Virus record (IMG/VR): IMGVR_UViG_2690315742_000006
Location: 1 to 22,975 of that record
Length of the DNA stretch: 22,975 nt
Direction: 5' to 3' (one strand)
Origin: a virus
Taxonomy: Duplodnaviria > Heunggongvirae > Uroviricota > Caudoviricetes
A program made the position numbers and the translations under genes. The notes under the pieces were generated by a model. That model was not told where the DNA came from. It made no database searches and saw nothing but the letters and a program-made list of their open reading frames with translations. The number at the start of each line of letters is the position of its first letter. Positions within the stretch are counted from its first letter, which is position 1. Shown piece after piece: positions 2,714-22,975 of the stretch.

Positions 2714-3954
2714 TGTTCTTTTCGGGATTATTTCAACGAAAAAGTGACGCGCCGGTGACCACGCCAGCAGAGCTGGCGGATGCTATCGGGCTGTCATACG
2801 ACACCTATACCGGAAAGCAGATCAGCAGCCAGCGGGCCATGCGACTGACGGCGGTTTTTTCCTGCGTCAGGGTGCTGGCAGAGTCGGTCGGGATGTTGCC
2901 CTGCAATCTGTATCACCTGAACGGCAGCCTGAAACAGAGAGCCACCGGCGAACGTCTGCATAAGCTGATCTCCACGCATCCCAATGGATATATGACGCCG
3001 CAGGAGTTCTGGGAGCTGGTGGTCACCTGTCTGTGCCTGAGGGGAAACTTTTACGCCTACAAAGTGAAAGCATTTGGCGAAGTGGCTGAACTGCTGCCCG
3101 TCGATCCTGGCTGTGTGGTACCGAAGCTTAACAGTAGCTGGGAGCCGGTCTATCAGGTCACATTCCCGGACGGCTCCACGGATGTACTGAGCCAGGAGGA
3201 TATCTGGCATGTGCGCACGCTGACGCTGGACGGACTGGTGGGGCTGAATCCCATCGCCTATGCCCGCGAGGCAATATCGCTGGCGGCAGCGACCGAAGAG
3301 CACGGGGCCAGACTGTTCAGCAATGGTGCGGTGACGTCCGGTGTGTTGCGTACAGAGCAGACGCTGTCAGATCAGGCTTACGAGCGCCTGAAGAAAGATT
3401 TTGAGGAGCGTCACACCGGGCTTGGCAATGCTCACCGCCCGATGATCCTTGAGATGGGGCTGGACTGGAAGTCGATGGCGCTGAACGCCGAGGACAGCCA
3501 GTTCCTGGAAACCCGCAAGTTTCAGCTTGAAGAAATCTGTCGTCTGTTTCGGGTGCCGTTGCACATGGTGCAGAACACCGATCGCGCCACCTTCAACAAT
3601 ATCGAAGAGCTGGGGCTGGGATTTATCAACTATTCACTGGTGCCGTATCTGACCCGCATTGAGCAGCGGATCAACACCGGACTGGTACGAAAAAGTAAGC
3701 AGGGCGTTTATTACGCCAAATTTAACGCCGGGGCGTTACTGCGCGGGGATATGAAGTCCCGTTTTGAAGCCTACGCCACCGGGATCAACTGGGGAATTTA
3801 CTCTCCTAATGACTGCCGCGACCTGGAAGATATGAATCCGCGTCCCGGTGGTGATGTCTATCTCACCCCGATGAACATGACCACGAAACCCTCCGATGGC
3901 AGTAAAGCCGGTAAGCAGAAGGATAACGCCAATGCAGACGAAACAACGTCTTGA
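2713..3954 (+). CDS. Portal protein (HK97-type)
   Basis: 413-aa ORF in canonical position after TerL; GTG start at 2713 with GGAGG at 2702-2706. Confidence 0.85.
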   Translation: MFFSGLFQRKSDAPVTTPAELADAIGLSYDTYTGKQISSQRAMRLTAVFSCVRVLAESVGMLPCNLYHLNGSLKQRATGERLHKLISTHPNGYMTPQEFWELVVTCLCLRGNFYAYKVKAFGEVAELLPVDPGCVVPKLNSSWEPVYQVTFPDGSTDVLSQEDIWHVRTLTLDGLVGLNPIAYAREAISLAAATEEHGARLFSNGAVTSGVLRTEQTLSDQAYERLKKDFEERHTGLGNAHRPMILEMGLDWKSMALNAEDSQFLETRKFQLEEICRLFRVPLHMVQNTDRATFNNIEELGLGFINYSLVPYLTRIEQRINTGLVRKSKQGVYYAKFNAGALLRGDMKSRFEAYATGINWGIYSPNDCRDLEDMNPRPGGDVYLTPMNMTTKPSDGSKAGKQKDNANADETTS

Positions 3955-4582
3955 TGTACCGCTGAGTCTGAAATCTGTCAGTGACTCCGGTGAGTTTGAA
4001 GGGTATGGCTCCGTCTTTGGTGTAAAGGACAGCCACGATGATGTGGTGATGTCCGGGGCATTTGCTGCTTCCCTGCGGGCGTGGAGTGACAGAAAAGCGT
4101 TACCTGCGCTGCTCTGGCAGCACCGCATGGATGAACCCATCGGTGTTTACACCGAAATGAAGGAAGACGATGTCGGGCTTTACGTCAGGGGACGGTTGCT
4201 TATTGATGATGATCCCCTCGCAAAACGCGCACATGCACACATGAAGGCCGGTTCGTTAACCGGCCTTTCTATTGGGTACGTCCTGAAAGACTGGGAATAC
4301 GACCGGAGCAAAGAAGCCTTTCTGCTGAAAGAAATCGACCTCTGGGAAGTCAGCCTGGTGACGTTCCCGTCTAACGACGAGGCGCGGATCAGCGACGTCA
4401 AGAACGCACTGGCCCGCGGGGAAATCCCCGAACAGAAAAAAATCGAAAGAGTCCTGCGTGATGTCGGACTCTCCCGTACCCAGGCCAAAGCATTCATGGC
4501 CGGGGGCTATGGCGCACTGTCCCTGCGCGACGCTGAGGATGTGGGCTCTGCACTGAATGCACTGAAAAATCTGAACTTCTAA
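3932..4582 (+). CDS. Prohead maturation protease (HK97 family)
   Basis: Motifs GYGSVFGVKDSHDDVVMSGAF and WQHRMDEPIGV typical of HK97 prohead proteases; ATG 3932 has AAGGA upstream; the in-frame ATG at 3896 is an alternative start. Confidence 0.8.
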   Translation: MQTKQRLDVPLSLKSVSDSGEFEGYGSVFGVKDSHDDVVMSGAFAASLRAWSDRKALPALLWQHRMDEPIGVYTEMKEDDVGLYVRGRLLIDDDPLAKRAHAHMKAGSLTGLSIGYVLKDWEYDRSKEAFLLKEIDLWEVSLVTFPSNDEARISDVKNALARGEIPEQKKIERVLRDVGLSRTQAKAFMAGGYGALSLRDAEDVGSALNALKNLNF

Positions 4583-4596
4583 TCAGGAGAAATACG

Positions 4597-5802
4597 ATGG
4601 CGGTTGATATTAAAGATGTCGAACAGGTCGCGCAGGAGCTGCAGCAGAAGTTTGACGACTTCAAAGCAAAGAACGACAAGCGCGTTGAGGCGATTGAGCA
4701 GGAAAAAGGCAAACTTGCCGGGCAGGTGGAAACCCTGAACGGAAAACTCAGCGAGCTGGAAAATCTCAAAAGCGATCTTGAAAAAGAGCTGCTTGAGCTG
4801 AAACGTCCGGCAGGTGGTGCGCAAAATAAACTGGCCACCGAGCATAAAGAAGCGTTTGTGGGCTTCCTGCGTAAAGGCCGTGAAGATGGTCTGCGCGATC
4901 TGGAGCGTAAGGCATTACAGGTGGGCACCGATGAAGACGGCGGCTATGCCGTGCCGGAAGAACTGGATCGCAACATTCTCAATCTGCTGAAAGATGAAGT
5001 GGTGATGCGCCAGGAAGCCACGGTGATCACCGTTGGCGGTTCCGACTACAAAAAACTGGTGAATCTGGGCGGCACGGCTTCCGGATGGGTTGGCGAGACT
5101 GACGCGCGCTCCCAGACTGCCACCTCAAAACTGGGACTGATTGAACCTTTCATGGGGGAAATCTACGGTAACCCGCAGGCCACCCAGAAAATGCTGGATG
5201 ATGCTTTCTTCAACGTGGAGGCCTGGATCAACAGCGAGCTGGCAACCGAATTTGCCGAACAGGAAGAAATTGCCTTTACCACCGGCGATGGTACCAAGAA
5301 GCCGAAAGGGTTCCTGGCGTATGAGTCCACTGATGAAACCGACAAGGTCCGGGCGTTCGGCAAACTTCAGCATATTGTATCCGGCGAAGCGACGGCAGTG
5401 ACCGCAGATGCCATTATCAAACTGATTTACACGCTGCGTAAGGCACACCGCACTGGCGCGAAGTTCATGATGAACAACAACAGCCTGTTTGCCATCCGTC
5501 TGCTTAAAGACAGCGAGGGTAACTATCTGTGGCGTCCGGGGCTGGAACTGGGGCAGCCGTCCTCTCTGGCGGGTTACGGTATCGCTGAAAACGAACAGAT
5601 GCCGGATATCGCCGCTGATGCGAAAGCCATTGCATTTGGTAACTTCAAACGGGGTTACACCATCGTTGACCGTATCGGCACCCGCATTCTGCGTGACCCG
5701 TACACCAATAAACCGTTTGTCGGTTTTTATACCACCAAGCGCACCGGCGGGATGCTGGTCGATTCGCAGGCCATCAAACTGCTGAAGATTGCAGCAGCGT
5801 AA
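4597..5802 (+). CDS. Major capsid protein (HK97 fold) with N-terminal coiled-coil scaffold (delta) domain
   Basis: 401 aa; first ~100 residues are a heptad-rich charged coiled coil (QELQQKFDDFKAKNDKRVEAIEQEKGKLAGQVETLNGKLSELENLKSDLEKELLELK) and no separate scaffold gene is present; GGAGA RBS. Confidence 0.85.
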   Translation: MAVDIKDVEQVAQELQQKFDDFKAKNDKRVEAIEQEKGKLAGQVETLNGKLSELENLKSDLEKELLELKRPAGGAQNKLATEHKEAFVGFLRKGREDGLRDLERKALQVGTDEDGGYAVPEELDRNILNLLKDEVVMRQEATVITVGGSDYKKLVNLGGTASGWVGETDARSQTATSKLGLIEPFMGEIYGNPQATQKMLDDAFFNVEAWINSELATEFAEQEEIAFTTGDGTKKPKGFLAYESTDETDKVRAFGKLQHIVSGEATAVTADAIIKLIYTLRKAHRTGAKFMMNNNSLFAIRLLKDSEGNYLWRPGLELGQPSSLAGYGIAENEQMPDIAADAKAIAFGNFKRGYTIVDRIGTRILRDPYTNKPFVGFYTTKRTGGMLVDSQAIKLLKIAAA

Positions 5803-5810
5803 TCATTCAG

Positions 5811-5836
5811 GGGGCGCAGAAGTGCGCCCCTGTTCT
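5811..5836 (+). terminator. Stem-loop downstream of capsid gene (partial terminator or mRNA stabiliser)
   Basis: GGGGCGCA gaag TGCGCCCC, 8-bp GC-rich stem with 4-nt loop at 5811-5830, followed by a weak T-tract (tgttct). Confidence 0.5.
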
Positions 5837-5852
5837 GACAGGTGAAAGAATC

Positions 5853-6041
5853 ATGATCCTGAAACAAGATCTGAAATGGTCACCGGACGGTATGCGTGTT
5901 GAGATTATTCGGGCCGGTGAGTATGAAGATAAAGAATTACCCGAACGGGTACGCGAAATTGCCACTGCAGCTGGGATTGTCTCTGATAAGAGAACACCTG
6001 TTGCGCGGGGGGCTGATAAGTCTAAAAAACAGCATTCATAG
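5853..6041 (+). CDS. Hypothetical small protein (62 aa)
   Basis: ATG at 5853 with AGGTG 8 nt upstream; charged hydrophilic sequence MILKQDLKWSPDGMRVEIIRAGEYEDKELPERVREIATAAGIVSDKRTPVARGADKSKKQHS; no family recognised. Confidence 0.4.
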   Translation: MILKQDLKWSPDGMRVEIIRAGEYEDKELPERVREIATAAGIVSDKRTPVARGADKSKKQHS

Positions 6042-6052
6042 AGGTTGCCCAA

Positions 6053-6358
6053 ATGATGCCCACTCTGGAAGAGCTTCGTGTTCAGTGCCGGATTGATGAT
6101 GACAATGAACAGGAGAATTCTCTTCTTATGATGTATCTGGCTGCTGCCAGGGAAGAGGCTGAAAAGTTTTTAAACCGGACGCTTTACGATGAAACTGTTT
6201 CTGAGCAGGATACGACCGGGCTTGTAATAACACCTCTGATAAAACTGCGTCTTATGCAACTGGTTGGCTACTGGTACGAGAACAGGGAAATGCAGGATGC
6301 AGTGCCTGATTTTTTCTATACCGGACTGCGGATGTATCGATTTCATCCCGGAACATAG
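6053..6358 (+). CDS. Head-tail connector protein (gp6-like)
   Basis: 101 aa, first gene after the capsid gene; LEELRVQCRIDDD...YLAAAREEAEKFL resembles gp6-type connectors. Confidence 0.6.
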   Translation: MMPTLEELRVQCRIDDDNEQENSLLMMYLAAAREEAEKFLNRTLYDETVSEQDTTGLVITPLIKLRLMQLVGYWYENREMQDAVPDFFYTGLRMYRFHPGT

Positions 6359-6366
6359 GAGGATTC

Positions 6367-6705
6367 ATGCAGGCAGGAAGATTACGTGATCGTGTGGTTA
6401 TTCTGAATGCCACCACCGTTCGGTCTCCGTCAGGGCACCCTGTGGAAACAATGACGGAGGGGGCAACCATATGGGCAGAAGTTAAGGGGATCAGTGGCAG
6501 GGAGAGAATATCCGGAGGCGCAGAAACTGCTCAGGCTACAGTGAGGGTCTGGATGAGATTCCGGCGAGATGTAACAGCAACTTCATGTCTGAAAGTGCTG
6601 ACTGGTGCATTCAAAGGCGCGATTCTGAGTATAGACGGTCCGCCGATACCGGATGCTCGTGCCACACGGCTTGAGATACTCTGTTCTCAGAAGGGGAATG
6701 TGTGA
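6367..6705 (+). CDS. Head closure / head-tail adaptor protein
   Basis: 112 aa; N-terminal MQAGRLRDRVVIL is the typical head-closure signature; AGGAGG RBS. Confidence 0.6.
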   Translation: MQAGRLRDRVVILNATTVRSPSGHPVETMTEGATIWAEVKGISGRERISGGAETAQATVRVWMRFRRDVTATSCLKVLTGAFKGAILSIDGPPIPDARATRLEILCSQKGNV

Positions 6706-7151
6706 TGGATTTCAGTCTTGATTTTTCAGGTCTGGCGGATATTGCACGGGATCTGGAGACGCTCAGCAGGGCAGAAAACAATAAGGTACTGCGCGATGCC
6801 ACCCGTGCCGGTGCTGAAGTTATGCGGGATGCAGTTGTTGAACGTGCGCCGGAGCGAACCGGGAAACTGAAGAAAAATGTGGTTGTTCTCACTCAGCGTT
6901 CAAAGCGTCGGGGGGAAATTATCTCGGGTGTCCACATTCGTGGACGGAACCTGCGGACCGGAAACAGTGATAACAGCATGAAAGCCAGTGATCCCCGAAA
7001 TGCGTTTTACTGGCGCTTTGTGGAGCTGGGAACGATAAACATGCCCGCGCATCCGTTCATTCGCCCGGCTTTCGATACGACAGAGGAACTGGCAGCACAG
7101 ATTGCCATACAGCGAATGAATCAGGCTATTGATGAGGTCTTAAGTAAATGA
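6705..7151 (+). CDS. HK97 gp10-family neck / tail-completion protein
   Basis: AFYWRFVELGTINMPAHPFIRPAFD motif; ATG 6705 overlaps previous stop (GTGATG); GTG 6702 is an alternative start. Confidence 0.65.
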   Translation: MDFSLDFSGLADIARDLETLSRAENNKVLRDATRAGAEVMRDAVVERAPERTGKLKKNVVVLTQRSKRRGEIISGVHIRGRNLRTGNSDNSMKASDPRNAFYWRFVELGTINMPAHPFIRPAFDTTEELAAQIAIQRMNQAIDEVLSK

Positions 7152-15017: not shown

Positions 15018-18000
15018 ATGGGTAAAGGCAGCAGTAAGGGGCATACCCCGCGCGAAGCGAAGGACAACCTGAAGTCCACGCAGTTGCTGAGTGTGATCGA
15101 TGCCATCAGCGAAGGGCCGATTGAAGGTCCGGTGGATGGATTAAAAAGCGTGCTGCTGAACAGTACGCCAGTGCTGGACAGTGAGGGGAATACCAACATC
15201 TCTGGCGTCACGGTGGTGTTCCGGGCAGGTGAGCAGGAGCAGACACCGCCTGAGGGGTTTGAATCCTCCGGCTCCGAGACGGTGCTGGGTACGGAAGTGA
15301 AATACGACACGCCGATCACCCGGACCATCACGTCTGCAAACATCGACCGTCTGCGTTTTACCTTCGGTGTGCAGGCTCTGGTGGAAACCACCTCAAAAGG
15401 GGACCGGAATCCATCGGAAGTCCGCCTGCTGGTTCAGATACAACGTAACGGTGGCTGGGTGACGGAAAAAGACATCACCATTAAGGGCAAAACCACCTCG
15501 CAGTATCTGGCATCGGTAGTGGTGGATAACCTGCCGCCGCGCCCGTTCAATATCCGGATGCGCAGGATGACACCGGACAGCACCACAGACCAGTTGCAGA
15601 ACAAAACGCTCTGGTCGTCATACACCGAAATCATCGATGTGAAACAGTGCTACCCGAACACAGCACTGGTCGGCGTACAGGTGGACTCGGAGCAGTTCGG
15701 CAGTCAGCAGGTGAGCCGTAATTATCATCTTCGCGGGCGCATTCTGCAGGTGCCGTCGAACTATAACCCGCAGACGCGGCAATACAGCGGTATCTGGGAC
15801 GGAACGTTTAAGCCAGCATACAGCAACAACATGGCCTGGTGTCTGTGGGATATGCTGACCCATCCGCGCTACGGCATGGGGAAACGTCTTGGTGCAGCCG
15901 ATGTGGATAAATGGGCGCTGTATGTCATCGGCCAGAATTGCGACCAGTCGGTGCCGGACGGCTTTGGCGGCACGGAGCCGCGCATCACCTGTAATGCCTA
16001 CCTGACCACACAGCGTAAGGCGTGGGATGTTCTCAGTGATTTCTGCTCGGCGATGCGCTGTATGCCGGTATGGAACGGGCAGACGCTGACGTTCGTGCAG
16101 GACCGACCGTCGGATAAGGTGTGGACCTATAACCGCAGTAATGTGGTGATGCCGGATGATGGCGCGCCGTTCCGCTACAGCTTCAGCGCCCTGAAGGACC
16201 GCCATAATGCCGTTGAGGTGAACTGGATTGACCCGAATAACGGCTGGGAGACGGCGACAGAGCTTGTTGAAGATACGCAGGCCATTGCCCGTTACGGTCG
16301 TAATGTCACGAAGATGGACGCCTTTGGCTGTACCAGCCGGGGGCAGGCACACCGAGCCGGGCTGTGGCTGATTAAAACGGAGCTGCTGGAAACGCAGACC
16401 GTGGATTTCAGCGTGGGCGCAGAAGGGCTTCGCCATGTCCCGGGCGATGTCATTGAAATCTGTGATGATGACTATGCGGGGATCAGCATCGGCGGGCGTG
16501 TGCTGGCGGTGAACAGCCAGACCCGGACACTGACGCTCGACCGTGAAATCACGCTGCCATCTTCCGGCACCACGCTGATAAGCCTGGTTGACGGACAGGG
16601 GAATCCGGTCAGCGTGGAGGTCCAGTCCGTCACCGACGGCGTGAAGGTGAAAGTGAGCCGGGTTCCTGACGGCGTTGCCGAGTACAGCGTGTGGGGGCTG
16701 AAGCTGCCGACGCTGCGCCAGCGCCTGTTCCGCTGTGTGAGTATCCGTGAGAATGACGACGGCACGTATGCCATCACCGCCGTGCAGCATGTACCGGCAA
16801 AAGAGGCCATCGTGGATAACGGGGCGCACTTTGACGGTGACCAGAGCGGCACGGTGAATGGTGTCACGCCGCCAGCGGTGCAGCACCTGACCGCCGAAGT
16901 CACCGCAGACAGCGGGGAATATCAGGTGCTGGCGCGCTGGGACACGCCGAAGGTGGTGAAGGGCGTGAACTTCCTGCTTCGCCTGACCGTGGCTGCGGAT
17001 GATGGCAGTGAACGGCTGGTCAGCACGGCCCGGACGACGGAAACCACATACCGCTTCAGGCAACTGGCGCTGGGAAATTACAGGCTGACAGTCCGGGCGG
17101 CAAATGCCTGGGGGCAGCAGGGCGATCCGGCATCGGTATCGTTCCGGATTGCCGCACCGGCAGCGCCGTCGCGGATTGAGCTGACGCCGGGCTATTTTCA
17201 GATAACCGCCACGCCGCATCTTGCCGTTTATGACCCGACGGTACAGTTTGAATTCTGGTTCTCGGAAAAGCGGATTGCGGATATCAGGCAGGTTGAAACC
17301 ACAGCCCGCTATCTTGGCACGGCGCTGTACTGGATAGCTGCCAGTATCAATATCAAACCGGGCCATGATTATTATTTTTATATCCGCAGTGTGAACACCG
17401 TTGGCAAATCGGCATTTGTGGAGGCTGTTGGTCAGCCGAGTGATGATGCGTCCGGCTATCTGAATTTTTTCAAAGGAGAGATAGGGAAAACCCATCTGGC
17501 TCAGGAGCTGTGGACGCAGATTGATAACGGTCAGCTTGCGCCTGACCTGACTGAAATCAGGACGTCCATAACGGATGTCAGCAATGAAATAACACAGACC
17601 GTCAATAAGAAACTGGAAGACCAGAGTGCAGCGATCCAGCAGATACAGAAGGTTCAGGTTGATACAAATAATAACCTGAACAGCATGTGGGCAGTGAAGC
17701 TGCAGCAGATGCAGGACGGACGCCTTTATATTGCGGGTATCGGTGCCGGTATTGAGAACACCCCCGACGGCATGCAGAGTCAGGTGCTGCTGGCTGCAGA
17801 CCGGGTGGCATTTATTAACCCGGCGAATGGTAACACCACTCCTGCACTGGTCACACAGGGCGGACAGACGTTTATTAATGAGGCGCTGATCAAGTTCCTT
17901 ATTGCTCCCACGATTACCAGTGGTGGCAATCCTCCGGCATTCTCCCTGACACCTGACGGAAAGCTGACTGCTAAAAATGCGGATATCAGTGGCAGTGTGA

Positions 18001-18497
18001 ATGCGAACTCCGGGACGCTCAACAACGTCACGATTAATGAGAACTGTCAGATTAAGGGGAAACTGTCAGCCAATCAGATTGAAGGCGATATTGTCAAAAC
18101 AGTGGGCAAAGCTTTCCCCCGGGACTCCCGTGCACCGGAACGGTGGCCATCAGGGACCATTACCGTCAGGGTTTATGACGATCAGCCGTTTGACCGGCAG
18201 ATTGTTATTCCGGCGGTGGCATTCAGCGGCGCTAAACATGAGAGAGAGCATACTGATATTTACTCCTCATGCCGTCTGATAGTGCGGAAAAACGGTGCTG
18301 AAATTTATAACCGTACCGCGCTGGATAATACGCTGATTTACAGTGGCGTTATTGATATGCCTGCCGGTCACGGTCACATGACGCTGGAGTTTTCGGTGTC
18401 AGCATGGCTGGTAAATGACTGGTATCCCACAGCAAGTATCAGCGATTTGCTGGTTGTGGTGATGAAGAAAGCCACCGCAGGCATCAGTATCAGCTGA
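15018..18497 (+). CDS. J: Host specificity / central tail fibre protein J
   Basis: 1159 aa; N-terminus [54 protein letters not shown] recognisable as lambda gpJ; GGAG RBS. Confidence 0.9.
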
Positions 18498-18564: not shown

Positions 18565-19164
18565 ATGCGTAAAGTTTGTGCAGCCATTTTGTCCGCAGCC
18601 ATCTGTCTGGCCGTATCCGGTGCGCCTGCATGGGCGTCTGAGCAGCAGGCCACACTGAGCGCAGGGTATCTTCATGCCCGTACGAACGCTCCCGGCAGCG
18701 ATAATCTGAACGGGATTAACGTGAAATACCGTTATGAGTTTACGGACACGCTGGGGCTGATTACGTCATTCAGCTATGCAGGAGACAAGAATCGCCAGCT
18801 TACCCGTTACAGCGATACCCGCTGGCATGAAGATTCCGTTCGTAACCGCTGGTTCAGCGTAATGGCGGGGCCGTCTGTGCGCGTGAATGAATGGTTCAGC
18901 GCGTATGCGATGGCGGGTGTGGCTTACAGCCGTGTGTCGACTTTCTCCGGGGATTATCTCCGCGTAACTGACAACAAGGGGAAAAAGCACGATGTGCTGA
19001 CCGGAAGTGATGACGGTCGCCACAGCAACACGTCTCTGGCGTGGGGAGCTGGCGTGCAGTTTAACCCGACCGAATCCGTGGCCATTGATGTCGCTTATGA
19101 AGGCTCCGGCAGTGGTGACTGGCGCACTGACGGGTTCATCGTGGGTGTTGGTTATAAATTCTGA
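18565..19164 (+). CDS. lom: Lom-family (Ail/Lom) outer membrane beta-barrel protein
   Basis: Signal peptide [24 protein letters not shown]; C-terminus ...[25 protein letters not shown] ends in the aromatic residue typical of outer-membrane beta-barrels and resembles lambda Lom; GAGAGG RBS. Confidence 0.85.
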
Positions 19165-19190: not shown

Positions 19191-19218
19191 AGCCCGCCGG
19201 TTCAGGCGGGCTTTTTTG
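19191..19218 (+). terminator. Rho-independent terminator after lom
   Basis: AGCCCGCC ggttca GGCGGGCT then TTTTTT. Confidence 0.75.
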
Positions 19219-19228
19219 TGGGGTGAAT

Positions 19229-22200
19229 ATGGCAGTAAAAATTTCAGGTGTACTGAAAGACGGCACAGGAAAACCGGTACAGAACTGCACAATCCAGCTG
19301 AAAGCAAAACGTAACAGTACCACGGTGGTGGTGAACACGCTGGCATCTGAAAATCCGGATGAAGCCGGGCGTTACAGTATGGACGTTGAGTACGGTCAGT
19401 ACAGCGTTATTCTGTTGGTGGAAGGATTCCCGCCGTCACATGCCGGGACCATCACAGTGTATGAAGATTCCCGACCCGGTACGCTGAATGATTTTCTCGG
19501 TGCCATGACGGAGGATGATGCCCGTCCGGAGGCACTGCGCCGTTTTGAGCTGATGGTGGAAGAGGTGGCGCGTAACGCGTCCGCGGTGGCACAGAACACG
19601 GCAGCCGCGAAGAAGTCAGCCAGCGATGCCAGCACATCAGCCCGTGAGGCGGCAACCCATGCGACTGATGCTGCAGGCTCAGCACGCGCAGCCAGCACGT
19701 CAGCCGGACAGGCCGCGTCGTCGGCTCAGTCAGCATCTTCCAGCGCAGGAACGGCATCAACAAAGGCCAGTGAAGCATCGAAAAGTGCTGCTGCTGCAGA
19801 GTCCTTAAAAAGCGCGGCAGCTACCAGTGCCAGTGCCGCGAAAACGTCAGAAACGAATGCTGCAGCGTCACAAAAATCTGCAGCCACTTCTGCATCCACC
19901 GCGACCACGAAAGCGTCAGAAGCTGCCACCTCAGCCCGGGATGCGTCGGCTTCAAAAGTGGCGGCAAAATCATCAGAAACGAGCGCAGCCTCGAGCGCCG
20001 GCATTGCAGCTTCCTCGGCAACGGCAGCAGGAAATTCCGCGAAGGCCGCAAAAACGTCTGAGACGAATGCGGATAACAGCGCACAGGCGGCAGCAGACTC
20101 ACAAACTGCATCGGCAAACTCCGCGACAGCAGCCAAAAAATCAGAAACCAACGCGAAAAATAGTGAGGCAGCAGCAAAGGTCAGCGAAACCAACGCTAAA
20201 GCGTCAGAGAACAAGGCGAAAGAATATCTCGACAAGGTCGGGGGACTCGTCAGCCCGATGACGCAATACGATTGGCCCGTTGTTACTGGTAATGAGTCTT
20301 TTTACATAAAGATCGCGAAACTTTCCGATCCCGGAAGCGGCAATTGCCATGTAACGCTAATGGTTACTAACGCTGGTAACTACGGCTCCCCTTACGGAAA
20401 CATTGACTTTATCGAGATCTCGGCGCGCGGTCTGCCTTCTTTGCTTAGTGCGGATAATGTTTCTCGTCATCTGAGTATACGCCGCTTAGGGTCAACCGGG
20501 CTGACCGATAACAACCAGATGCGTTACGGCCTGGTTAAAGGTGACGGCTTTATTGAGGTTTGGGCCTTCCAGCGCGCATTTATCAACGGCGCAAAGGTTG
20601 CGGTACTGGCGCAGACGGCACGCACGGAATTATACATTCCAGACGGATTTGTTAAGCAAACCGCCGCGCCTTCTGGATATGTTGAAAGCCCCGTTGTAAG
20701 GATTTACGACCAGTTAAACAAGCCGACTAAAGCAGATTTGGGTCTTTCTAATGCTATGCTTACAGGCGCTTTCGGTCTTGGCGGTAGCGGGATATCAACA
20801 AACGGCAAGATGAGCGATGTAGAGATCTTAAAAGCTCTGCGTGACGAAGGTGGTCATTTCTGGCGCGGTGATAGGCCGACCGGAAGCACGGCGACCATTT
20901 ATAGCCACGGTTCTGGTATATTCTCGCGGTGCGGCGATACGTGGTCAGCGATCAATATCGACTACTCAACCGCGAAGATTAAGATCTATGCCGGCAACGA
21001 TGCCCGGCTTAACAACGGGACTTTTAGCGTCAATGAGCTATACGGCTCGGCAAACAAGCCGTCGAAATCGGATGTTGGACTTGGCAACGTAACGAACGAT
21101 GCGCAGGTAAAAAAAACCGGCGATACAATGACCGGTGACTTGACAATCAAAAAAGGTACACCGTCAGTCTTCCTGCGGGCAGACAGTGGAGTCACCGCTT
21201 TGCGGTTTTATACTGGCGATAACACAGAGCGCGGCATAATCTATGCTGGTCCTAACACTGATTCGCTTGGCGAAGTTCGCATTAGGGCTAAAAACGCAAA
21301 AGGTGAAACAAACGGTGATCTTATTGTTCGCCACGACGGGGTGGTTGAGGTTCAGAATCTCACAGCGGCTAAAAAAGTCAAAAGCGTAACCGCAGAATTT
21401 GCAAACACAAGCACTAGCTCCGATGATACCACGGTAAATATCAAAGGATCACAGCATACGCCTTTGGTTTTAACGCGCAATAACACAATTAAAAATTTAT
21501 CCATTGGATTTAAGGTTGATGGCGTTGACCAAAAATATCTCGGCATATACGGTGACGGTGATTTGTATTTTGGTAGTTATTCTGACCACACAAAAAACAG
21601 TAGAGTAATTACACAAGCAAAACTAGATAGCGGGTTAACGGTAGGCGGTAAAACAACCTTTTCTGACCTTGCTACATTCAACGCAGGTATATCTGGAGCA
21701 ATTGAACCTGAAAGCATTTCTGCAGTGACTGTTGATCTTAATAATCTGACCATAAAAGGCACAGATAAAGGATCAGTTAAATACTATCAATGCAGAACTG
21801 CCGGAGGTGGTGCAAATATTACCAATAAGCCTGACGGCGTAGGCGGCAACTTTTTGCTTCGTGTAGAGTCAATTCGTAAGGTTAGTGATTCAGATTATAT
21901 AAACATGCAAACGCTGATTAGCGGCGACAAAGGACGCGTGCATGTTCGTTTTGTTACTAATGGTAATTGGACAGCATGGCGTGAGGTAGTTGTTTCAGGA
22001 TGGAATCAGGATGTAACCGTCAGGTCGTTAACCTCGACGACTCCATCAAAATTAGGTGGCGGGCGGATTGATGTGCTTGGAAGTACGTCAGATTATGGCA
22101 GCATGAATTGTACCGTGCGCGGTGTTGATAGCAGCGGAACTAATTCTGCGTGGTCAGTAGGCACATCAGTAGACACTGGCAAAACGTTGTATCTGAAAAA

Positions 22201-22975
22201 CCACAGAACCAGTTCACAAGTGCTGATAAGTGGCGATACTGGATCTATTAAGCTACAAAATGGTAATGCAAACAAGGAGTTAGCGCTAACCGAAGATTCA
22301 GTTACCTCAAACGCTGACATTATCCTAAAAAATAGTGATGATGGCCCCCGTCTTATTATAAAAAACTCAAACAATTCGGCGCAGTCGTGGAGTGTTACGG
22401 TGTGGGGTAAAAGCGGAAGGGAAAGCATTTTTGAGGTTGGTAACAGCAACGGTTACATGTTTTACGCACAAGAAACGGCATCGGGTGGCAGAAATTTTGA
22501 CTTTAACGGTGATGTTACATGTAAGACACTATACCAAACTTCTGATCAAAGCCTTAAAGACAACATTAAGGTTATAGGTGACGCTACCGAATCCATCCGT
22601 AAAATGAATGGGTACACATACACGTTTAAGGACGACGGCCTGCCTTATGCTGGCGTTATTGCACAAGAAGTAATGGATGCGCTGCCTGAAGCGATAGCGT
22701 TTACCACTCTTTACGGTAAAGAGCTACAGGGGCCAACAACTGACGGAAACGTGTTACGCGAAGAGATGAAGTGCCTTAGCGTTGACTATGCGGCGGTGAC
22801 TGGTTTACTTGTTCAGGTCGCCCGTGAAACAGATGATCGCGTTACCGCGCTGGAAGAGGAAAACACAACGCTACGTGAAAATCTGGCAACAGCAGACACC
22901 CGGATCAGCACTCTGGAAAATCAGGTAAGCGAACTGGTTGCACTTGTCCGGCAGTTAACAGGAAGCGAACATTGA
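19229..22975 (+). CDS. stf: Side tail fibre protein with C-terminal intramolecular chaperone (peptidase S74-like) domain
   Basis: N-terminus MAVKISGVLKDGTGKPVQNCTIQLKA... recognisable as lambda Stf; Ala/Ser/Thr-rich repeat region; GDTMTGDLTIKKG fibre motif; C-terminal ...TSDQSLKDNI...NGYTYTFKDDGLPYAGVIAQEV plus terminal coiled coil; stop coincides with the window end. Confidence 0.8.
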   Translation: MAVKISGVLKDGTGKPVQNCTIQLKAKRNSTTVVVNTLASENPDEAGRYSMDVEYGQYSVILLVEGFPPSHAGTITVYEDSRPGTLNDFLGAMTEDDARPEALRRFELMVEEVARNASAVAQNTAAAKKSASDASTSAREAATHATDAAGSARAASTSAGQAASSAQSASSSAGTASTKASEASKSAAAAESLKSAAATSASAAKTSETNAAASQKSAATSASTATTKASEAATSARDASASKVAAKSSETSAASSAGIAASSATAAGNSAKAAKTSETNADNSAQAAADSQTASANSATAAKKSETNAKNSEAAAKVSETNAKASENKAKEYLDKVGGLVSPMTQYDWPVVTGNESFYIKIAKLSDPGSGNCHVTLMVTNAGNYGSPYGNIDFIEISARGLPSLLSADNVSRHLSIRRLGSTGLTDNNQMRYGLVKGDGFIEVWAFQRAFINGAKVAVLAQTARTELYIPDGFVKQTAAPSGYVESPVVRIYDQLNKPTKADLGLSNAMLTGAFGLGGSGISTNGKMSDVEILKALRDEGGHFWRGDRPTGSTATIYSHGSGIFSRCGDTWSAINIDYSTAKIKIYAGNDARLNNGTFSVNELYGSANKPSKSDVGLGNVTNDAQVKKTGDTMTGDLTIKKGTPSVFLRADSGVTALRFYTGDNTERGIIYAGPNTDSLGEVRIRAKNAKGETNGDLIVRHDGVVEVQNLTAAKKVKSVTAEFANTSTSSDDTTVNIKGSQHTPLVLTRNNTIKNLSIGFKVDGVDQKYLGIYGDGDLYFGSYSDHTKNSRVITQAKLDSGLTVGGKTTFSDLATFNAGISGAIEPESISAVTVDLNNLTIKGTDKGSVKYYQCRTAGGGANITNKPDGVGGNFLLRVESIRKVSDSDYINMQTLISGDKGRVHVRFVTNGNWTAWREVVVSGWNQDVTVRSLTSTTPSKLGGGRIDVLGSTSDYGSMNCTVRGVDSSGTNSAWSVGTSVDTGKTLYLKNHRTSSQVLISGDTGSIKLQNGNANKELALTEDSVTSNADIILKNSDDGPRLIIKNSNNSAQSWSVTVWGKSGRESIFEVGNSNGYMFYAQETASGGRNFDFNGDVTCKTLYQTSDQSLKDNIKVIGDATESIRKMNGYTYTFKDDGLPYAGVIAQEVMDALPEAIAFTTLYGKELQGPTTDGNVLREEMKCLSVDYAAVTGLLVQVARETDDRVTALEEENTTLRENLATADTRISTLENQVSELVALVRQLTGSEH
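19590..20230 (+). repeat. Ala/Ser/Thr-rich low-complexity region with recurring K-x-S-E-T-N-A motif inside the tail fibre gene
   Basis: Motif copies encoded near 19838-19861, 19961-19987, 20045-20071, 20131-20157 and 20169-20198 (AKTSETNA, AKSSETSA, AKTSETNA, KKSETNA, KVSETNA); about 57% G+C in a hand-counted 60-nt block. Confidence 0.6.
22541..22972 (+). other. Predicted self-cleaving intramolecular chaperone domain of the tail fibre
   Basis: Ser (22541-22543) and Lys (22556-22558) in an S-D-x-S-L-K-D context, followed by ~140 aa ending in a heptad coiled coil (LEEENTTLRENLATADTRISTLENQVSELVALV). Confidence 0.55.

Follow-up and report, generated by a model that had tools for sequence, protein, structure and literature searches.

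The side tail fiber of bacteriophage lambda (Ur-lambda), Stf, is encoded after J and lom, comprises an N-terminal attachment domain, a heptad shaft and a distal part encoded by orf-314, and requires a separate 194-aa protein, Tfa. S74 intramolecular chaperones use a Ser/Lys dyad at positions i and i+5 together with a Thr-Ser scissile bond (PMC3742443; PMC4690869). The characterized members, among them T5 pb1, in which the corresponding residues are Thr1263-Ser1264 and Lys1269, are ~130–150 aa long and contain a trimeric coiled-coil helix (PMC4690869). The two systems have been joined artificially in an engineered lambda Stf-K1F endosialidase chimera, where the lambda Stf N-terminus is fused at residue 528 to an S74-bearing receptor-binding protein and yields functional particles (Brodel et al. 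2024, PMC11338833). Literature searches returned no paper dedicated to lambdoid Stf proteins with S74 chaperones, and the “S74” that appears in PMC12502783 is a primer name rather than the peptidase.

The locus described here occupies the 3′ end of a 22,975-nt stretch of viral DNA (hereafter the window; IMG/VR record IMGVR_UViG_2690315742_000006). There is very good reason to regard it as a side tail fiber gene (stf) that encodes a mosaic homotrimer ending in an S74 chaperone; the phage itself would be lambda-like, temperate and a virus of E. coli, combining a head of the HK97 type with a tail of the lambda type. This reading draws on gene order, from matches to PF08400 and PF13884 that exceed the curated cut-offs, and from alignment with PDB 9e7m. 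J (15018–18497) and lom (18565–19164) precede stf as they do in lambda, and a complete terminase-to-J structural gene set lies upstream within the window. The terminator-like element between lom and stf (Table 1) has a counterpart annotated at the corresponding place in the Ayreon and mEp460 records. In a scan of the window for open reading frames, the stf frame is uninterrupted from either an ATG at 19229 or a GTG at 19223, of which the ATG is the start that agrees with lambda Stf and 9e7m, and the stop codon forms the final three bases of the window. A 169-aa antisense ORF at 19726–20235 most likely arises incidentally from the Ala-rich coding frame.

Table 1. Features of the stf locus; positions are those of the window.
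Feature	Position	Strand	Basis or remark
Terminator-like GC hairpin and T run between lom and stf	19191..19212	+	Sequence
stf ORF	19229..22975	+	1248 aa, 130.9 kDa precursor
N-terminal tail-attachment domain, lambda Stf type, aa 1–134	19229..19630	+	PF08400 (phage_tail_N)
Ala/Ser/Thr-rich heptad-periodic shaft, aa ~120–335	19586..20233	+	Composition, periodicity, lambda Stf alignment (to aa 284)
Recombination junction 1, end of shared N-terminal module	20190..20215	+	HSP ends at nt 20202, codon 324
Distal modules D1 (aa ~345–503) and D2 (aa ~504–654)	20201..21178	+	GC3 0.55, phage-typical
Recombination junction 2	21100..21260	+	Change of best-matching relative; GC3 change-point at 21242
Low-GC3 block (0.34): T4 gp34-type shaft repeats (aa ~645–694) and module D4	21179..22003	+	GC3, 9f4a match
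Module D4, aa 800–925	21626..22003	+	Most widespread distal module
Tip region D5, aa 926–1104, directly N-terminal of chaperone	22004..22540	+	Sequence comparison
Predicted scissile Thr1104-Ser1105 bond and putative catalytic Lys1110 (T-S-D-Q-S-L-K)	22538..22558	+	Alignment
Peptidase_S74 intramolecular chaperone domain, aa 1105–1248, 144 aa, 15.8 kDa	22541..22972	+	PF13884; recombination module 5
C-terminal long helix, aa ~1187–1244, predicted trimeric coiled coil	22787..22960	+	AF2, heptad pattern

At its N-terminus the protein is closely akin to lambda Stf. The PF08400 match scores 238.8 bits (cut-off 26.6; E 1.8e-71), PDB 9e7m is matched at E 1.5e-51, and the first 94 residues show few substitutions relative to the 94-residue lambda tail fiber protein chain in that structure. 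The initial annotation had recognized lambda Stf over the first ~110 residues; the lambda-like N-terminus is correct, but its extent was underestimated, as colinear homology at 85% identity reaches aa 284. The Ala/Ser/Thr shaft itself falls inside this region of homology. The Ala/Ser/Thr-rich character ascribed to the shaft is reflected in a fraction of 0.63–0.77 for these residues over aa ~130–300, and its 7-residue period is strong, with an autocorrelation of 0.42 at lags 7, 14 and 28 compared with a background of ~0.16. The resemblance to lambda does not extend to the distal part, which has no similarity to lambda orf-314, or to the mode of assembly: a built-in S74 chaperone is present where lambda requires Tfa, and the relatives of this locus carry only a relic of tfa downstream.

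The C-terminal domain is the likely counterpart of the chaperones described above. The PF13884 (Peptidase_S74) match on aa 1105–1155 scores 46.6 bits (cut-off 22; E 4e-12) and covers model positions 1–56 of 58 at the C-terminus of the fiber. The S-D-x-S-L-K-D motif from which an endosialidase-type chaperone had been proposed is found exactly where it was placed, as SDQSLKD with Ser1105 at nt 22541 and Lys1110 at nt 22556, giving the i, i+5 spacing (S-D-x-x-x-K) and the same T-S...K arrangement as in T5 pb1. Neither the 25 close relatives nor the 20 diverse ones that were aligned show any substitution at Ser1105, Asp1106 or Lys1110, and the protein has all eight of the residues that do not vary among diverse S74 chaperones. 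A profile built from the 20 diverse relatives matches PDB 6f45, 7dc3, 8jov and 3gud, with E-values of 1.5e-25 for S16 gp37, 1e-11 for the MYRF ICA domain and 5e-9 for 8jov. In 3gud, the residue aligned with Ser1105 is the Ser with which the chain of the released GA-1 chaperone opens, and both Ser1105 and Lys1110 also align with the MYRF and S16 motifs. The Pfam match, the invariant Ser/Asp/Lys residues and the profile matches to solved chaperones together uphold the original proposal.

By sequence, the closest solved chaperone is that of Salmonella phage S16 gp37 (6f45), in which SSDRRIKKDIK aligns with TSDQSLKDNIK here; however, gp37 belongs to the fiber of a T4-like myovirus that also uses the gp38 adhesin, and the regions preceding the two chaperones are unrelated. 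T5 pb1 and a second characterized member are too dissimilar for direct phmmer matches (the T5-like fiber 8hqz alone scored, at E 0.024), their terminal helix comprises ~24 residues compared with ~58 here, and the preceding tip is unrelated by sequence. The terminal coiled coil of the initial annotation is likewise predicted: the helix at aa ~1187–1244 displays a heptad a/d hydrophobic pattern and weakly matches the coiled coil of P22 gp26. In an AlphaFold2 monomer of aa 1000–1248 (25-sequence alignment), this helix is the only part with a pLDDT of 71–92, the mean being 49; the order of elements in this low-confidence model, namely helices, a hairpin (aa ~1156–1185) and the long helix, fits the chaperone fold. 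In S74 chaperones, the folding sensor is an upstream Arg of the neighboring subunit that stabilizes the oxyanion. Among the upstream arginines in relatives of this fiber, Arg1064 is invariant and Arg1088, the nearest to the domain, is not conserved.

The gene structure, the sequence-based domain assignments, the junctions, the composition and the tfa relic of relatives are observed directly. These features suggest how the fiber might be built and matured, and we infer trimer formation, self-cleavage and receptor binding by analogy with the mechanism of characterized S74 members. The fiber would be a homotrimer of exchangeable modules, in which a lambda-type N-terminus docked on the tail tip is followed by a ~200-residue heptad shaft, by a distal region of ~780 residues (shaft, knob and tip modules) that would bind the host surface, and by the S74 chaperone. 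Three chaperone domains would trimerize via the terminal coiled coil and template the folding of the distal tip, and in a correctly folded trimer Lys1110 would activate Ser1105, such that the Thr1104-Ser1105 bond is cut. Self-cleavage of the C-terminus through Ser1105 and Lys1110 is most likely, to judge from the conserved motif, and is predicted to release a 144-residue fragment of 15,786 Da, leaving a mature fiber of ~115 kDa. With its chaperone built in, the fiber would therefore have no need for a separate Tfa.

It is improbable, though somewhat less so than the other alternatives weighed below, that the S74 domain is instead a non-catalytic remnant and that the fiber goes uncleaved or needs a second protein as chaperone, from a gene shortly past the end of the window. 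Cleavage is deduced from sequence, and the window stops at the stf stop codon, so that the earlier remark that no separate assembly gene lies inside it is uninformative. When a tail fiber assembly gene was sought downstream of stf in relatives, only a relic was encountered and no intact tfa. In 41 related loci (mEp460 and 40 others in which the final 36 nt of the ORF are identical), which include Ayreon, mEp460 and PhiR70_1 and of which three are isolated phages, there is just a 33–48-codon tfa relic after the stop. It represents Tfa codons 147–194 at most and begins 37 nt past the stop codon. Of 49 loci examined, 44 gave a tblastn match, and in none of these is a full-length lambda-type Tfa encoded in the 3 kb that follow; nor does any Tfa-like Pfam family occur in the annotated downstream ORFs that were scanned (three in Ayreon, one in mEp460).

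What could speak for a separate chaperone is that this Tfa-derived stretch, 42–48 codons long in relatives, has kept an open frame, in phase with the TGA stop, in all 40 of the 40 loci, at a pN/pS of 0.32. However, the relic lacks Tfa residues 1–146 and, in the L053 locus, which was read at the base level, any canonical in-frame start codon, and isolated plaque-forming phages have the identical arrangement. Loss of catalysis, for its part, is hard to reconcile with a domain that is full length, has its terminal helix and keeps all eight invariant residues. A self-cleaving, self-sufficient chaperone is the preferred reading.

Slightly less probable again is that the ORF belongs to a defunct prophage and that its product is neither made nor built into particles any more. 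Among complete genomes, E. coli TA8571 and A65EC hold the two closest copies, and the annotation lists both as disrupted (split or partial) pseudogenes; therefore not all copies of this family are functional. In the present case, however, the 1248-codon frame is unbroken and sits behind the full structural gene set, and intact orthologs exist in isolated phages, all of which favors a working fiber gene.

Sequence comparison supports the view that this gene is a recombinational mosaic, in which a conserved anchor and shaft are joined to swapped receptor-binding modules. Its first 974 nt (to nt 20202) are common to mEp460, PhiR70_1 and many IMG/VR prophages at 93–96% identity; all similarity to them is then lost until nt 22527–22552, and homology resumes exactly at the start of the S74 domain, which places recombination junctions at nt 20202 and at 22527–22552. 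The first of these natural junctions, at residue ~324, differs in position from the fusion point of the Stf-K1F chimera. Painting the gene in 120-nt tiles reveals at least five donor blocks, with identity to different relatives switching blockwise between 100% and 55–80%. Every module has a database protein that is at least 96% identical, and no single relative exceeds 94% nucleotide identity overall (94.2% for the best prophage relative). IMG/VR prophages contain a 51-mer of the gene and its final 36 nt, but none of them matches the whole gene; a lookup of the exact protein in three start variants found nothing, and an exact 51-mer scan of the genome contig collection gave no match.

Base composition contributes to this picture at a different place from the one first proposed. 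The hand-counted G+C values were exact on recomputation (0.567 in 19921–19980 and 0.283 in 21481–21540), and from them the initial annotation had concluded that a composition break near 20230 implies recombination. There is indeed a junction, but it is established by homology and not by base composition: the fall in G+C at ~20200–20230 is carried by codon position 2 (GC2 0.78 to 0.42), whereas GC3 is 0.50–0.57 across this interval and 0.42–0.63 as far as aa ~650. The step is an amino-acid effect, occurring where the Ala/Ser/Thr heptad run stops, and the high total G+C of the shaft is due to its GC2 of 0.78. Computed by codon position, composition is nevertheless not uniform. A likelihood change-point falls at codon 671 (nt 21242), with GC3 of 0.53 before and 0.39 after (LLR 12.7; the highest value among 300 permutations was 8.7). 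Segment 21179–22003 has a GC3 of 0.34, whereas the 5th percentile for 60-codon windows from the window's other genes is 0.42. The junction near 21100–21250 is thus truly compositional. The wholly GC2-borne step at the end of the Ala/Ser/Thr codon run might suggest a non-mosaic stf passed on by vertical descent, with composition differences that are purely amino-acid effects. This reading is refuted by the significant GC3 change-point, by the blockwise switching of homology and by the restriction of similarity with mEp460 and PhiR70_1 to the two ends of the gene, and we accord it next to no weight.

The fibers of Ayreon, mEp460, PhiR70_1 and vB_EcoS-640R1, together with prophage proteins named “pyocin knob domain-containing S74 family peptidase”, are built on this plan, with a lambda-type N-terminus followed by a variable middle and a C-terminal S74 domain, and likewise have no intact tfa, but their combinations of modules differ and none matches throughout. 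Ayreon stf, for example, is 86.7% identical over its full length by blastn and 89.6% over 92% of the gene by megablast. Phage vB_EcoS-640R1 is ~99–100% identical at the nucleotide level from ~20130 to ~21030, and E. coli TA8571 and L053 are 100% identical over 21269–21988. Within D2, aa ~507–590 are similar to a section of the long tail fiber gp12 of SU10 (7z47, E 6e-4); that section is absent from the built map and so yields no structural information. The T4 gp34-type repeats match 9f4a at E 1e-7. Module D4 gives 90 domain matches among 150 representatives, and its close homologs bear the NCBI label “pyocin knob domain-containing”; searches of NCBIfam, Pfam and the PDB with aa 800–925, including a profile of 27 sequences, gave nothing but antibody light chains, which are spurious profile matches. 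An NCBIfam scan of the protein likewise gave no meaningful match, an AlphaFold2 monomer of aa 325–1010 (25-sequence alignment) has a mean pLDDT of 37, and an alignment-profile match to lambda J most likely stems from a single fusion sequence, P0103, that bears a GpJ-type N-terminal domain.

The modules spanning aa ~325–1104 probably set the host range of the phage. For D5, the best nucleotide match is 84.8% at near-full coverage among 5,426 complete E. coli genomes, its tiles reach 75–88% at most, and its best protein match is 96.5%. The most divergent part of D5, aa ~961–1045, is the likeliest site of receptor specificity as judged from sequence comparison.

This patchwork most likely arose by homologous recombination among co-circulating prophages, with three conserved stretches as homology arms: the first 974 nt, the sequence for the S74 domain and the 3′ tfa relic seen in relatives. 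It is a long shot that the stf-tfa region of these relatives constitutes a standing cassette-exchange locus, with the 974 nt, the S74 domain and the relic as fixed arms; if it does, chaperone-independent receptor-binding modules would be swappable between prophages of either assembly system. More speculatively still, the relic may be retained because it is expressed, for example through read-through of the TGA. The composition profile serves as a general reminder that an intragenic G+C step may be an amino-acid effect and that placing a recombination junction requires position-specific GC together with homology breakpoints. Folding without a helper gene, as predicted for this fiber, would be useful for grafting receptor-binding parts onto lambda-based delivery particles. 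Overall, the gene is an ordinary mosaic side tail fiber of a type common in E. coli prophages, with hundreds of near-full-length homologs already named “S74 family peptidase”, and it is the combination of modules that is new. Its value is mainly one of annotation, in that it shows which part of such a fiber, aa ~325–1104 and above all the tip at aa ~961–1045, is likely to determine host range.

The side tail fibre gene (stf) closes a complete lambda-like set of structural genes (terminase, portal, HK97-type head genes, tail genes, then J and lom; table) and forms a single long frame reaching the last base of the window, with a product of 1248 aa (130.9 kDa). The frame offers two start codons, GTG 19223, taken by the default ORF call, and ATG 19229, and both types are represented among the annotated lengths of database homologues (1250 and 1248). 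Translated from the ATG, the protein begins MAVKISG..., as do lambda Stf and the PDB 9e7m Stf chain, and these sequences support ATG 19229 over the GTG; residues are numbered from it here.

The phage_tail_N family (PF08400) matches aa 1-134 (E 1.8e-71, Pfam scan). The initial annotation had recognized lambda Stf in the first ~110 residues; the likeness is real but extends further, as the two proteins are colinear up to residue 284 (85% identity), and the Ala/Ser/Thr shaft is therefore included in the similarity. This shaft had been described as a repeat region, which is borne out by an Ala/Ser/Thr fraction of 0.63-0.77 across aa ~130-300 and by a protein-level heptad repeat (autocorrelation 0.42 at lags 7, 14 and 28); no tandem repeat was detected in the DNA of this stretch. 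Antisense ORFs of 169, 108 and 100 aa overlap the shaft (19726-20235 (-), also 19396-19778 (-)), comparable to the antisense "orf206b" annotated within stf in lambda's record, and most likely arise from the GCN/NGC-rich repeat rather than being genes. The distal part (aa ~325-1104) shows no similarity to lambda distal Stf, orf-314. Lambda Stf thus has the N-terminus, shaft and locus in common with the protein studied here, whereas the distal part and the chaperone system differ.

Features of the stf locus and its surroundings
Feature	Position	Remark
J	15018-18497	upstream of lom and stf
lom	18565-19164	between J and stf
Terminator-like hairpin	19191-19212	between lom and stf
Distal modules of the stf product	aa ~345-503, 504-654, 655-799, 800-925, 926-1104	separate stretches matched by 231 relatives
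tfa relic	37-180 nt after the stf stop in related loci L001, L002 and L005-L053 (e.g. L053:8790-8936)	outside the window

Homology to other phages breaks off at defined points. Escherichia phages mEp460 and PhiR70_1 are 94-96% identical to the window over nt 19229-20202; similarity is then absent until 22552 and 22527, where it resumes at 84-85% identity. Among 45 IMG/VR prophage loci, chosen by the common last 36 nt of the stf ORF, match boundaries recur at query positions 974 (nt 20202) and 3324 (nt 22552), and additionally at nt 22237 and 22711. The first junction, some ten residues ahead of the end of the heptad shaft, lies at most 30 nt from 20230, near which recombination had been proposed, and the boundary common to mEp460, PhiR70_1 and the prophages confirms that proposal. 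The C-terminal junction falls on the Ser1105 motif, which makes the chaperone a separate module.

Sliding identity displays a succession of close relatives. Identity to Ayreon reaches 100% at roughly 19800-20100. Between ~20130 and ~21030, identity to vB_EcoS-640R1 and E. coli A65EC is ~99-100% (A65EC 92-93% near 20430-20500), and both drop to 53-69% at 21179; E. coli TA8571 is 100% identical across roughly 21330-21930. When 120-nt tiles were compared with all fetched loci, nearly every tile had a 98-100% match somewhere, and the donor changed at least five times. The sole stretch without a close DNA match is ~22109-22408 (75-88%); for 22080-22420, the best near-full-length match in 5,426 complete E. 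coli genomes is 84.8%. At the protein level, each module, tip included, shares at least 96% identity with some relative in the database. The best full-length match (94.2%) is the TA8571 copy, which carries the annotation of a disrupted pseudogene; Ayreon reaches 86.7% full-length by blastn, and 89.6% in a megablast alignment spanning 92% of the gene. The mosaic character initially proposed is upheld by the homology junctions, the donor switches and a GC3 change-point, and the gene combines known pieces in a new way.

Base composition locates a further break. Hand counts of ~57% and ~28% G+C proved exact on computation (0.567 at 19921-19980, 0.283 at 21481-21540). Near 20200-20230, the end of the Ala/Ser/Thr codons lowers second-position GC from 0.78 to 0.42, but GC3 is 0.50-0.57 across this step and 0.42-0.63 up to aa ~650; codon usage does not break at this point. 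At the codon level, the true break comes at codon 671 (nt 21242), where GC3 passes from 0.53 to 0.39 (LLR 12.7, versus at most 8.7 in 300 permutations). Segment 21179-22003 has a GC3 of 0.34; 247 sixty-codon windows from the other genes of the window have a mean of 0.59 and a 5th percentile of 0.42. The two counted windows therefore span two distinct phenomena. The GC and codon-usage check suggested at the outset thus finds a non-uniform composition, with the break placed near 20230 holding for G+C and not for codons.

An exhaustive search of 1.84 billion representatives returned only 231 relatives at E <= 0.001, and modules can be outlined because these match separate stretches. The most widespread module, aa 800-925 (90 domain matches among 150 representatives, sometimes two per protein), is presumably the "pyocin knob" of NCBI homologue names, a label for which Pfam, NCBIfam and PDB profiles gave no confirming match. 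Short shaft motifs have a match in gp34, the T4 long tail fibre (9f4a, E 1e-7), and aa ~507-590 match a segment of SU10 gp12 that is not resolved in the structure; AF2 on aa 325-1010 gave a mean pLDDT of 37. From its position and variability, we infer that the distal part sets host range. Two database proteins join the same distal part and S74 end to other N-termini, Lom (PF06316) in P0006 and a GpJ FNIII domain (PF24801) in P0103; artefacts of gene calling or assembly, or deletions, probably account for them. A lambda-J match in one profile search was spurious, most likely originating from P0103 in the alignment.

The C-terminal domain matches Peptidase_S74 ("chaperone of endosialidase", PF13884) at aa 1105-1155 (46.6 bits; cut-off 22). 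It opens with the motif SDQSLKD, whose Ser1105 (nt 22541) and Lys1110 (nt 22556) lie exactly where first reported. Ser1105, Asp1106 and Lys1110 are invariant in 25 close relatives and, together with Tyr1131, Gly1142, Ala1145, Gln1146 and Pro1153, in an alignment of the C-terminal domains of 19 diverse fibre proteins from the exhaustive representative search, 21-75% identical to this one. The profile of this alignment matches four solved chains: S16 gp37 (6f45, E 1.5e-25), the MYRF autocleavage domain (7dc3, E 1.1e-11), phage tail fibre 8jov (E 5e-9) and the released GA-1 neck-appendage chaperone (3gud, E 1.4e-4), whose start, SDERHK, aligns exactly with Ser1105. The family is defined by a Ser/Lys dyad five residues apart, S578/K583 in MYRF (PMC3742443). 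T5 pb1 is cleaved between Thr1263 and Ser1264, a reaction assisted by Lys1269, and its domain terminates in a trimeric coiled coil (PMC4690869); the counterpart here is Thr1104-Ser1105/Lys1110. The last ~58 residues are a confident AF2 helix with a heptad a/d pattern, in a model of aa 1000-1248 with a mean pLDDT of 49. Of the self-cleaving chaperone with terminal coiled coil initially envisaged, S74 membership, as judged by these sequence tests, and the heptad-patterned helix are supported. The predicted released fragment (144 aa, 15,786 Da) is close to the ~16 kDa anticipated, and the fibre would be expected to work like T5 pb1 and K1F-type self-chaperoning fibres.

As the stf stop codon is the window end, the window is silent on any assembly gene beyond it; the earlier argument from the window against one fails, although its conclusion is right for the family, in which relatives carry only a relic of tfa, the gene for lambda's separate assembly protein. 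In all 40 loci with the common stf 3′ end and at least 200 nt of downstream sequence, a stretch homologous to Tfa residues 147-194 begins 36-37 nt past the TGA stop, lacking the first 146 codons; mEp460 carries the same relic. In L053, read at base level, the relic has no in-frame ATG, GTG or TTG. Of 49 loci examined, 44 gave a tblastn match, and in these no full-length lambda-type Tfa was found up to 3 kb downstream; some of the loci searched have second partial copies. The annotated downstream ORFs scanned in Ayreon (three) and mEp460 (one) match no Pfam family. Behind P0001, the closest relative by protein sequence (92% over the distal part), come a 42-aa "Caudo_TAP" fragment and then unrelated genes. 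In an ancestral replacement, the stf distal part and the first 146 tfa codons were lost and an S74-type fibre end was inserted instead.

The relic is always in frame with the TGA stop, behind a 12-codon linker, and has no internal stop (pN/pS 0.32, codons 147-179). Its last few residues vary and seem to be endings from different tfa alleles. The interval between stf and relic has no terminator-like site, and AAGGAGG occurs within the linker. The relic may survive as a recombination arm only, by gene conversion from intact tfa copies, or through expression. Related prophages adjoin ssrA (L001, TA8571) and smpB (L001, L053), and the cargo past the relic varies (a GIY-YIG protein, Dcm methylase and EcoRII in L053; an AAA ATPase in A65EC), which suggests that this end of the prophage is a hotspot for defence genes or morons.

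The same architecture is found in the isolated phages Ayreon, mEp460 and PhiR70_1, and a match covering at least 80% of stf is present in 402 of the 5,426 complete E. coli genomes. The closest of these copies are annotated as split or partial pseudogenes (L001 4001-7753; L007, A65EC, 3001-6765), and in strain EC2 the match extends ~1 kb beyond the gene length, overlapping an annotated IS903B-family transposase; inactivation of this fibre gene is common in resident prophages. The distal part is matched by 2,115 database proteins, many already named "peptidase S74", and a functional engineered lambda Stf-K1F fusion (PMC11338833) is an artificial equivalent of the architecture. The initial reading is thus correct in substance but ordinary: stf is a mosaic member of an already known fibre type.
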